A DNA stretch of 2,413 bases from NCBI RefSeq assembly GCF_003334255.1, contig NZ_QOWU01000134.1. The stretch is one strand, 5' to 3'. The number at the start of each line of letters is the position of its first letter. Positions within the stretch are counted from its first letter, which is position 1. Source of the DNA: Escherichia coli. GTDB taxonomy: Bacteria; Pseudomonadota; Gammaproteobacteria; Enterobacterales; Enterobacteriaceae. The position numbers were made by a program, and so were the translations under genes. A model generated the notes under the pieces. It was given only the letters and a program-made list of their open reading frames with translations, was not told the origin of the DNA and did not search any database. This document shows, one piece after another, positions 1 through 638 of this stretch.

Positions 1-638
1 GGACCCTGTGGTCCGGGTGGTCCGGCCTCTCCACGTGGGCCGGTGTCACCTTTCGGCCCCGGCGGTCCGCCCGGGTCACCTTTATCGCCCTTCGGTCCCT
101 GTGGACCTGTTTCTCCCCGTTCTCCCTTTGGCCCCGGCTCACCTTTTGGTCCGACCGCCCCCGTTGCCCCGGCTGGTCCCTTTGCCCCTGTGGCACCCTG
201 TGGACCTGTGTCCCCCTTCTCGCCCGCCGGTCCCCGGGCATTCTCTGCCCGTTTCTTCGCTTCCTCTGCACTCGCCGCCGACGCTTCAGCACGCTTCAGG
301 ATTTCCGCTGCCACCGCTTCCAGCTCTGCAAGCGCTTTCGGGTAATACTGCGCCTCATCCTGTTCCATCAGAAATTTATTCAGCGTTCCCGGCTCAGAAT
401 CCGCCTTCACCAGAATGTCACCCACATACGACGGGGCGTACCCTTCCGTGTTCAGCGTCACCCGGTACCACCCCGGCTCCACATCAAAACTGTAACTGCC
501 GGTTTCCTCCGGCTGCCCCTGCGCCACCGTGGTGACTATCACTGTCTCTGTGGTGCGTCGCGCTTTCAGCTCTATGGTGCATCCCGGCACCGGCTTCCCG
601 GTGCCGTCCTTCAGCACGCCCGATATTCTGACTGTCAT
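1..638 (-). CDS. stf: Side tail fibre protein (lambda Stf-like), N-terminal 212 codons; CDS continues past the window start
   Basis: Minus-strand ATG at 638..636, preceded by GGAG (648..645) with a 6-nt spacer. My codon-by-codon translation is open to position 1 with no stop: [28 protein letters not shown]... This matches, from memory, the lambda Stf N-terminus ([26 protein letters not shown]...). An Ala/Glu-rich helical segment follows, then Gly-X-Y repeats. The ORF is absent from the supplied track only because it has no stop inside the window. Confidence 0.85.
3..233 (-). repeat. Collagen-like Gly-X-Y repeat tract inside stf ([18 protein letters not shown] ...), continuing beyond the window
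   Basis: Translation of the minus strand puts Gly at every third codon, with codon first bases at 233, 224, ... 71 (19 triplets). One extra residue follows (codon 62..60), then at least 6 more triplets (Gly codons at 59, 50, 41, 32, 23, 14, 5). The DNA is visibly GC-rich with recurring GGnCCn. The antisense strand gives Pro-rich pseudo-ORFs. Confidence 0.85.

Follow-up and report, generated by a model that had tools for sequence, protein, structure and literature searches.

The Gly-Gly interruption in the collagen-like side tail fiber of an Escherichia coli lambdoid prophage is an inherited feature within a conserved motif

Why should a prophage tail fiber gene encode a long run of Gly-X-Y triplets that is broken once, by a single additional residue, and is the additional codon truly there? 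The question is raised by a 2,413-nucleotide (nt) stretch of Escherichia coli DNA, here called the window, in which the minus strand carries all three long open reading frames. The 3' end of J, encoding the central tail fibre or host specificity protein (nt 1457 to 2413; phrog_2148, E = 3.5e-183), is followed by lom, encoding an outer-membrane beta-barrel protein of the Ail/Lom type (nt 790 to 1389; phrog_108, E = 5.5e-94), and then by the 5' part of stf (nt 1 to 638, with its ATG at nt 636 to 638). The stf product, a side tail fiber and an EPclC-type prophage collagen-like protein, matched the tail fiber protein family phrog_366 (E = 3.2e-113). The gene leaves the window over the left edge, and 212 codons are visible (nt 3 to 638, translated from 638 to 3).

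The succession of J C terminus, lom, and stf on one strand places stf at its position in the lambdoid tail cluster, and the order is that of lambda, J-lom-orf401 (stf). Lambdoid prophages of E. coli chromosomes matched the window over its whole length, most closely the one in NZ_AP022815 (99.8% identity), whose three genes carry the annotations phage tail tip protein J, Ail/Lom family protein, and, for a product of 478 amino acids, "prophage tail fiber N-terminal domain-containing protein." At a homologous locus, L001, genes for tape measure, M-like, L, K, I, and J proteins lie upstream. Between lom and stf, the minus strand carries a terminator-like hairpin with a T-run (nt 649 to 686), in which a stem of 13 pairs (nt 686 to 657) precedes the T-run and the element ends 10 nt upstream of the stf ATG. 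A Shine-Dalgarno-like GGGAGAA is found on the same strand at nt 644 to 650, upstream of the stf ATG.

The N-terminal domain of Stf had been described as lambda-like in the original prediction, and this was borne out. PF08400 matched residues 1 to 134 (E = 2.1e-42), 70 of 140 residues (50%) were identical to lambda orf-401, and the collar of the Ur-lambda Stf (PDB 9E7M/9MGH) matched residues 1 to 91 (E = 4.1e-29). An AF2 model, which was a single chain of the N-terminal 151 residues built with 12 homologues, showed strands at residues 3 to 8, 20 to 29, 37 to 41, 48 to 53, 56 to 64, and 70 to 77 and a helix at 86 to 91. The domain match, the PDB match, the identity, and the modeled strands and helix place the protein in the lambda-type Stf (PF08400) family, with a PfN or StfN collar at residues 1 to 91 (nt 366 to 638, minus strand) that is a six-stranded beta domain with a short helix. 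Residues 92 to 135 (nt 234 to 365, minus strand) comprise a flexible linker at about residues 92 to 98 and an Ala/Glu-rich helix at 99 to 134; the model had low pLDDT at residues 96 to 100 and no helix from residue 135 onward, in agreement with the short Ala/Glu helical linker that had been predicted. About 4.5 heptads can be read off the helix sequence, with L103, L106, A110, I113, A117, S120, A124, A127, A131, and A134 at the a and d positions, and the helix would be a short trimeric coiled coil, the "PCoil" of related proteins in a short form.

The (Ur-)lambda Stf (orf-401/orf-314; PDB 9E7M, 9MGH) occupies the same locus position and has a homologous collar and the same linker position. The gpStf of Ur-lambda is built of a collar at residues 1 to 91, a flexible linker at 92 to 101, and a coiled coil from residue 102 (PMC12617516). 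Cryo-EM showed that the StfN collar docks the fiber at the gpV-gpM junction of the tail tip, and the Ur-lambda Stf forms trimers on the tail tip and makes adsorption faster (PMC12617516), with four trimeric fibers per virion. By homology with Ur-lambda, we infer that the Stf studied here would likewise dock at the gpV-gpM junction, and by homology it would also assemble as trimers on the tail tip and speed adsorption. The two fibers appear to differ in the proximal rod, which in lambda is a coiled coil of about 290 Ala/Ser/Glu-rich residues and here seems, from the sequence, to be a short coil followed by a collagen triple helix. They differ also distally, in that the lambda distal part resembles T4 gp37 and binds OmpC, whereas the distal part of the Stf family here is unrelated to it and closes with a small domain ending in ...LFQRAY.

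Re-translation of the minus strand from nt 638 to 3 put the first collagen Gly at residue 136 (nt 231 to 233), where the original prediction had it, and confirmed a Gly periodicity of at least 25 Gly-X-Y triplets, whose register is shifted by a single added residue. The first 18 triplets of collagen domain 1 are uninterrupted (residues 136 to 189; nt 72 to 233, minus strand), as is also reflected in a Pfam Collagen match at residues 135 to 190. A one-residue insertion then gives Gly190-Gly191 (nt 66 to 71, minus strand), and 7 more triplets and one Gly follow in the shifted register (residues 191 to 212; nt 3 to 68, minus strand). The 18 plus 7 triplets are a minimum since the gene exits the window; in the nearest full-length homologues, the tract continues past the window edge for 13 to 20 triplets. 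Two Gly codons meet at the break, GGC (nt 69 to 71) and GGA (nt 66 to 68), and either may be the "extra" codon. In the nomenclature of PMC11923368, this is a G3G-type interruption, G-D-P-G-G, with a change of Gly register of +1, and it forms part of G-D-P-G-G-P-P-G at residues 187 to 194. The ten-residue break motif first noted is indeed present at residues 187 to 196, and it spans nt 51 to 80, not nt 60 to 80 as originally given. In a near-identical full-length homologue, the Pfam Collagen hits cover residues 135 to 190 (E = 2.6e-08) and 191 to 230 (E = 2.3e-05), splitting exactly at the break, and the full-length homologue matched collagen chains in the PDB with an E value of 1.7e-69. Glycine at every third residue through 18 plus 7 triplets, along with the Pfam E values, assigns the tract to the collagen triple helix family (PF01391), and the periodicity, judged from sequence, is far beyond chance.

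A break of this kind could in principle come from the sequencing, and the original prediction rated a 3-nt indel, made in sequencing or assembly, as equally possible. Comparison with other genomes did not sustain that view. The stf part of the window differed from NZ_AP022815 by two SNPs (nt 182 and nt 508), neither of them near the break, and the sole indel between the two was in the intergenic T-run at nt 652. The 240-nt tract alone was found in 43 complete E. coli genomes and was covered to at least 80% in 42 of the 43; the full-coverage matches listed were all exactly 240 nt long, two of them 100% identical. Conservation of the break among homologous prophage tail fibers, which had been suggested as a check, was observed: GDPGGP[PQAV]G was present in 28 of the 120 homologue clusters listed, from E. 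coli, Salmonella enterica, and Citrobacter freundii, with identity to the query down to about 43%, and several of the motif-carrying clusters hold tens to hundreds of member sequences. GDPGGP[PQAV]G was also present in 23 of 80 related viral-contig loci. Seven DNA contexts of the motif differed in synonymous codons, for example GGT GAC CCG GGC GGA CCG CCG GGG versus GGA GAC CCG GGG GGG CCT CAG GGA, and diverged homologues at 43 to 64% identity, from three genera, keep the motif with different codons. An error in a GC-rich, repetitive tract, a reading that can also point to the homopolymer indel, though intergenic, that separates the window from the nearest genome, has a negligible chance of being right against an exact 240-nt length in 42 complete genomes from many laboratories, listed motif-carrying clusters with hundreds of member sequences together, other codons for the same motif in the three genera, and a motif in print since 2012. 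The extra glycine is real and inherited. It is close to certain that nt 1 to 638 of the minus strand encode the N-terminal 212 residues of a lambdoid-prophage Stf of the collagen-like EPcl class and that the break in it is genuine.

The interruption is also not new to the literature. Ghosh et al. (2012, PLoS One 7:e37872; PMC3368898) described the prophage collagen-like proteins EPclA to EPclD of enterohemorrhagic E. coli, composed of the domains PfN, PCoil, Col, Pf2, and PfC, and reported the exact interruption motif for the EPcl family. A full-text search of the literature on Gly-Gly-Pro in phage collagen-like proteins found only that paper, and the Gly-Gly interruption in prophage tail fiber collagen is already known. 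The same work showed by experiment that the Col domain of EPclA is a collagen triple helix with a Tm of 42°C, that its PCoil forms a coiled coil of three chains, and, by EM, that the whole protein is a trimer with the shape of a dumbbell (PMC3368898).

The window itself contains the PfN domain, then (Gly-X-Y)n and the break motif, and the architecture downstream was tested on the L001 homologue (L001:5202-6638, 478 amino acids), which is 99% identical over the window part. That protein consists of PfN, a short coil, Col1, Pf2, a short helix, Col2, and a C-terminal region, where Col1 has 18 triplets, a Gly, and 13 triplets and Col2 has 33 triplets. Pfam matched Pf2 at residues 236 to 277 (E = 7.8e-16) and Collagen at 288 to 385; there was no PF06820 hit in L001, and its 83-residue C-terminal stretch (396 to 478) had no Pfam match. 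Another homologue, P0003, is 100% identical over the 212 amino acids and also has PF03406. From these homologues, 99 to 100% identical over the shared part, the Stf studied here would have the EPclC-type layout beyond the start of Col1 as well. It has PfN and one or more collagen domains in common with both the EPclC type (ORF-401 of P-EibA, 479 amino acids; ECED1_1681) and EPclB (Z1483/ECs1228). In the EPclC type, Pf2 lies between two collagen domains and the C terminus is unrelated to PfC, and the L001 homologue is likewise arranged. The PCoil of EPclA, EPclB, and EPclD has 88 to 116 residues, in contrast to a short coiled coil of about 36 residues here. The statement of Ghosh et al. concerns two-domain proteins, whereas the break was seen here also in fibers with a single long collagen domain (L015 to L022 and L323), in which 42 to 63 triplets come after it. 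A strict link of the break to the two-collagen-domain architecture is ruled out by these carriers. A link to one type of C-terminal domain is excluded as well, in that carriers end in LFQRAY, LFQRIS, PfC, QWVTVEHE, or EIKELREK.

What we add to the 2012 description is that the conservation extends over about 17 residues and not only eight. The motif, [KR]G[DE]-x-GDPGGP-x-GPKGD, occupies residues 183 to 199 (nt 42 to 92, minus strand). In a profile of 26 unique 55-residue contexts anchored on the break, the X and Y positions were 80 to 100% conserved across [KR]-G-[DE]-x-G-D-P-G-G-P-x-G-P-K-G-D and 30 to 60% conserved elsewhere. The GDP triplet makes up 2.6% of all triplets in the family, as against at least 90% at the position before the break. 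The three flanking Y-G-X positions were [KR]G[DE] in 100%, 69%, and 81% of cases, compared with a background of 29%, and in the protein studied here the Lys-Gly-Asp pairs beside the break are K183-G-D, K186-G-D, and K196-G-D. Because synonymous codons differ across the DNA contexts, the motif is kept at the level of the protein. A signal in the DNA itself was considered, in that the coding strand at the break, CCCGGGCGGACCGCCGGGG, is a near-palindrome whose opposite strand also reads P-G-G-P-P-G. A DNA structure or recombination signal was rejected because homologues lose the palindrome and keep the peptide with other codons.

Salt-bridge "knots" of the KGE/KGD type are enriched beside interruptions in collagens and collagen-like proteins (Malcor et al. 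2025, Nat Commun 16:2702; PMC11923368), and the Stf break likewise has Lys-Gly-Asp/Glu immediately on both sides, enriched over the family background. The enrichment reported by Malcor et al. is statistical and was found across collagens, and is not specific to phage fibers or to the Stf motif; a clamping role for the pairs here is suggested by analogy.

The core of the motif is found well outside this family. A degenerate DNA scan of viral contigs for G-D-P-G-G-P-x-G-P-x-G gave at least 120 loci, and 103 of the 128 in-frame matches listed had Gly-X-Y runs on both sides, most of them in proteins without PfN. The string is thereby present in more than 100 viral loci, most of which are unrelated to lambda Stf, and the EPclB-type loci L089, L177, and L195 to L197 carry GDPGGPAG. 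Two pattern samples that were agnostic to the sequence of the break were also drawn from viral contigs; both were small, came from the first files of the collection, and consisted of related, phylogenetically clumped sequences. The first, of 133 collagen-like ORFs, showed diverse junctions, with G1G the commonest (48), followed by Gly-Gly (12) and other G3G interruptions (12). The second comprised 173 contexts for which a one-residue insertion was the sole criterion, and Gly-Gly made up about half of them. The pattern xPGGPx accounted for 6 of 57 cases and DPGGP for none of the 57 in one sample, and for 1 of 12 in the other. P-G-G-P as the universal one-residue break of viral collagens is contradicted by the many break types and by these low counts of xPGGPx and DPGGP. 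Within these small and clumped samples, a Gly added beside a Gly is, by its sequence frequency, a common solution, with the full motif apparently limited to certain lineages. Adding Gly next to Gly may be the preferred route by which viral collagen-like proteins fit a one-residue insertion.

As to what the break does, we propose that it serves as a clamped flexible point in the trimeric shaft, a role to which we would give somewhat less than an even chance. The collar (residues 1 to 91) would anchor the trimer to the tail tip, and the short coil (99 to 134) leads straight into collagen domain 1. If the three identical chains are staggered by one residue, an insertion in each of them would disturb the packing of Gly in the core at three successive levels. 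The inserted residue being a second Gly, either residue could occupy the core, and the three staggered extra glycines would locally break both the Gly-in-core packing and the inter-chain hydrogen-bond ladder. A short loosened segment would result about 15 nm (18 triplets at 0.86 nm) distal to the junction of coil and collagen, and it would act as a small kink or a point of flexibility. The invariant prolines of P-G-G-P and the flanking Lys-Gly-Asp/Glu pairs would be the clamps, keeping the loosening from spreading and re-nucleating the helix in the shifted register.

There are precedents in animal proteins. The GQG interruption of MBL lowers stability and bends the helix by as much as 85 degrees, and C1q is kinked by one additional residue (PMC9898670). 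Both have, as does the Stf here, a single short Gly-X-Y break in a trimeric collagen stalk, and in MBL a Pro precedes the break (GEP-GQG), with bending demonstrated (PMC9898670). Unlike the phage Gly-Gly break, the MBL break is a G1G with one residue missing and the C1q break lies in a heterotrimer, and both occur in animal proteins with hydroxyproline. The kink or register shift suggested in the original prediction is reasonable by analogy with MBL and C1q and is weakened by the existence of break-less variants. Closer in setting are the fibers of short-tailed Stx phages (Sp5 ORF67/ECs1228; phi24B gp61), which have a collagen-like shaft and a Pf2 repeat, as here. The Sp5 fiber protein was located at the tail end by immuno-EM; cryo-EM of phi24B gp61 resolved only the N-terminal part, the collagen shaft being flexible. 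These fibers differ from the present one in belonging to podovirus tails and in having a long PCoil and a PfC-type C terminus.

Other observations weigh against a flexible point. EPclA, which was studied by CD and EM, has no break. The Ur-lambda Stf has a 124-degree hinge (residues 394 to 422) just after its Pf2 repeat, whose core starts at residue 362 (PMC12617516); Pf2 precedes the distal part there, and a homologous Pf2 is present in the nearest full-length homologue of the Stf here. Because this homologous Pf2 follows collagen domain 1, and the lambda hinge adjoins Pf2 and not the proximal rod, it is not evident that another hinge would be required. Many proteins have 18 triplets between the collagen start and the break and others have 8 to 47, which speaks against a precisely positioned joint. 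With 8 to 47 triplets before it and 7 to 63 after it across carriers, a break held at a fixed "ruler" position is likewise ruled out.

The main rival to a clamped flexible point is that the break is a tolerated, functionless scar of module fusion, kept by cassette recombination: (GXY)n-G and (GXY)m would have been joined once, and the joint would have spread by recombination that re-used the cassette ends. We consider this explanation unlikely, with a real chance nonetheless of being correct. It draws on the way in which the family varies. The break is absent from 22 of 50 clusters with long collagen tracts. In one break-less protein, P0016, the post-break sequence is joined directly to the coiled coil, and in another, P0013, the break was apparently lost when 10 residues (3n+1) between two GDP triplets were deleted. 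Both are closely related and share the N-terminal module, and some break-less relatives have the same type of C-terminal domain as well. As close relatives with the same terminal domains lack it, the break would be dispensable for assembly, and in sequence terms it is dispensable to the family. A fusion scar would also fit the finding that one upstream collagen segment pairs with at least four different downstream segments and that the reverse is seen too, and that similarity to the window ends two triplets past the break in L323 and L015. With upstream and downstream collagen segments reassorted around the motif, the site behaves, as judged from these alignments, as a joint between collagen modules, [(GXY)n-G] plus [(GXY)m]. 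A mosaic junction exactly at the break was also considered for NZ_AP045169 (H50) and was discarded, in that the shared 63 nt lie four triplets after that protein's own break.

Against a neutral scar, the synonymous differences indicate that DNA identity is not what is kept, conservation is far higher at the X and Y positions of the motif and in its charged flanks than in the neighboring triplets, and one would expect a scar without function to decay or to be removed often by 3n+1 deletions. Part of the motif conservation could come from shared ancestry and recombination of one cassette and not from selection for flexibility.

A further alternative is that the motif, having no mechanical role, is a site of specific recognition or processing, for example by a fiber-assembly chaperone, a protease, or a host ligand. 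We find this very improbable. A sequence-specific motif of 17 residues within an otherwise variable repeat would suit such a site, as would the adjacency of the loosened MBL interruptions to protein-binding sites (PMC9898670) and the presence of G-D-P-G-G-P-x-G-P-x-G in over 100 viral-contig loci mostly without a PfN domain. Against it, there is no known partner, the distance of the break varies from both ends of the tract, break-less variants share the same terminal domains, and the genes downstream of carriers differ, with a DUF4376 gene in L001 and L322 and other genes elsewhere.

Returning to the clamped flexible point, the account as a whole, of an EPclC-type Stf with an inherited Gly-Gly break that acts as a clamped flexible point and module joint, seems to us evenly poised between right and wrong. 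A stronger version, in which the Gly-Gly break, the P-G-G-P core, and the Lys-Gly-Asp/Glu flanks make up a selected, self-contained "clamped joint" cassette that provides both a flexible point and a point of exchange between proximal and distal modules, is more doubtful, and we put it forward tentatively as an idea that is probably incorrect in some part.

For annotation, the impact is small, as stf genes are already annotated routinely as prophage tail fiber genes and the interruption motif has been in print since 2012. For the scanning of genomes, the lesson is not to take a break of register for an assembly error when the phage collagen tract has P-G-G-P. If the clamped joint were true, it would supply a simple and portable sequence rule for placing a point of flexibility in collagen rods of bacteria or phages, which would be useful in the design of recombinant collagens. 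It would also help to explain how long, thin phage fibers search the cell surface, and it would give a reason for the swapping of fiber modules at the position of the break.

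The one-residue break in the collagen-like tract of Stf, in which an extra Gly shifts the Gly-X-Y register by +1, was not uniform among relatives. Within homologue clusters P0057 and P0030, two variants of the break were found. One, GDPEGPQG, carries Glu rather than Gly as the inserted residue, but comes from a single ENA sequence and could be an error in that one entry. The other, GETGGPPG, has Thr in place of the Pro ahead of Gly-Gly. Together, these variants point to an insertion position that is retained even where the sequence of the break differs. Other relatives lack the break altogether. 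In cluster P0016 the coiled coil runs straight into the post-break collagen sequence, and in P0013 a stretch of 10 residues is missing between two GDP triplets; each of these changes takes out 3n+1 residues, and the uninterrupted register is thereby restored.

Collagen-like open reading frames (ORFs) from viral contigs (L324 to L411 and L205), picked solely for a one-residue insertion, form a small sample that includes related sequences. About half of the one-residue insertions in this small set with relatives were Gly-Gly, and Pro directly preceded Gly-Gly in approximately 40% of those. This suggests, within the limits of a small sample containing relatives, that an extra Gly is the favored way for viral collagen-like ORFs to accommodate a +1 shift.

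Two long, Pro-rich ORFs, of 175 amino acids (nt 8 to 535) and 100 amino acids (nt 43 to 345), lie on the plus strand, antisense to the collagen and coil region of stf. The strand opposite stf also reads ...GPGGPPGS..., because the codons for Gly (GGN) and Pro (CCN) complement one another, and both ORFs look like by-products of composition. A comparable antisense ORF inside stf, orf206b, is annotated in the lambda record. Upstream of stf, the minus strand of the window carries terminator-like hairpins followed by T-runs in the J/lom gap (nt 1411 to 1438, stem 1438 to 1419) and in the lom/stf gap (nt 649 to 686, stem 686 to 657), the latter ending only 10 nt from the stf ATG. With such a hairpin on both sides, lom is arranged as would be expected for a "moron" gene. 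The sole indel between the window and the nearest genome, at nt 652, falls in the T-run of the lom/stf hairpin.

The C-terminal 83 residues of the full-length Stf homologue in NZ_AP022815 (residues 396 to 478; nt 5202 to 5450 of that locus, outside the window) had no Pfam match. They terminate in a conserved ...GLFQRAY, the related fibers ending in LFQRIS, LFQRIR, or LFQRIA, and presumably form a receptor-binding or trimerizing tip. Downstream of stf in this locus (nt 2782 to 5185) are genes for a DUF4376 protein, which matches phrog_1141 "tail fiber protein" (E value of 2e-79) and may serve as an assembly or accessory protein, and then for a YadA-like adhesin, at the prophage end adjoining tRNA-Ser. 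The same pair follows the gene for a 644-amino-acid tail fiber in NZ_AP045169 (nt 1630 to 3564 of that locus), whose tail module is a different one; upstream of the fiber gene is a gene for a "phage adaptor protein." This fiber has a long coiled coil and, unlike the NZ_AP022815 homologue, a nonlambda N-terminal anchor domain. The two share their distal half, consisting of the first collagen domain (its break reading GDPGGPQG in the NZ_AP045169 fiber), the Pf2 repeat, the second collagen domain, and a C-terminal domain ending in LFQRAY. It looks as if shaft and tip have been swapped between phage types.
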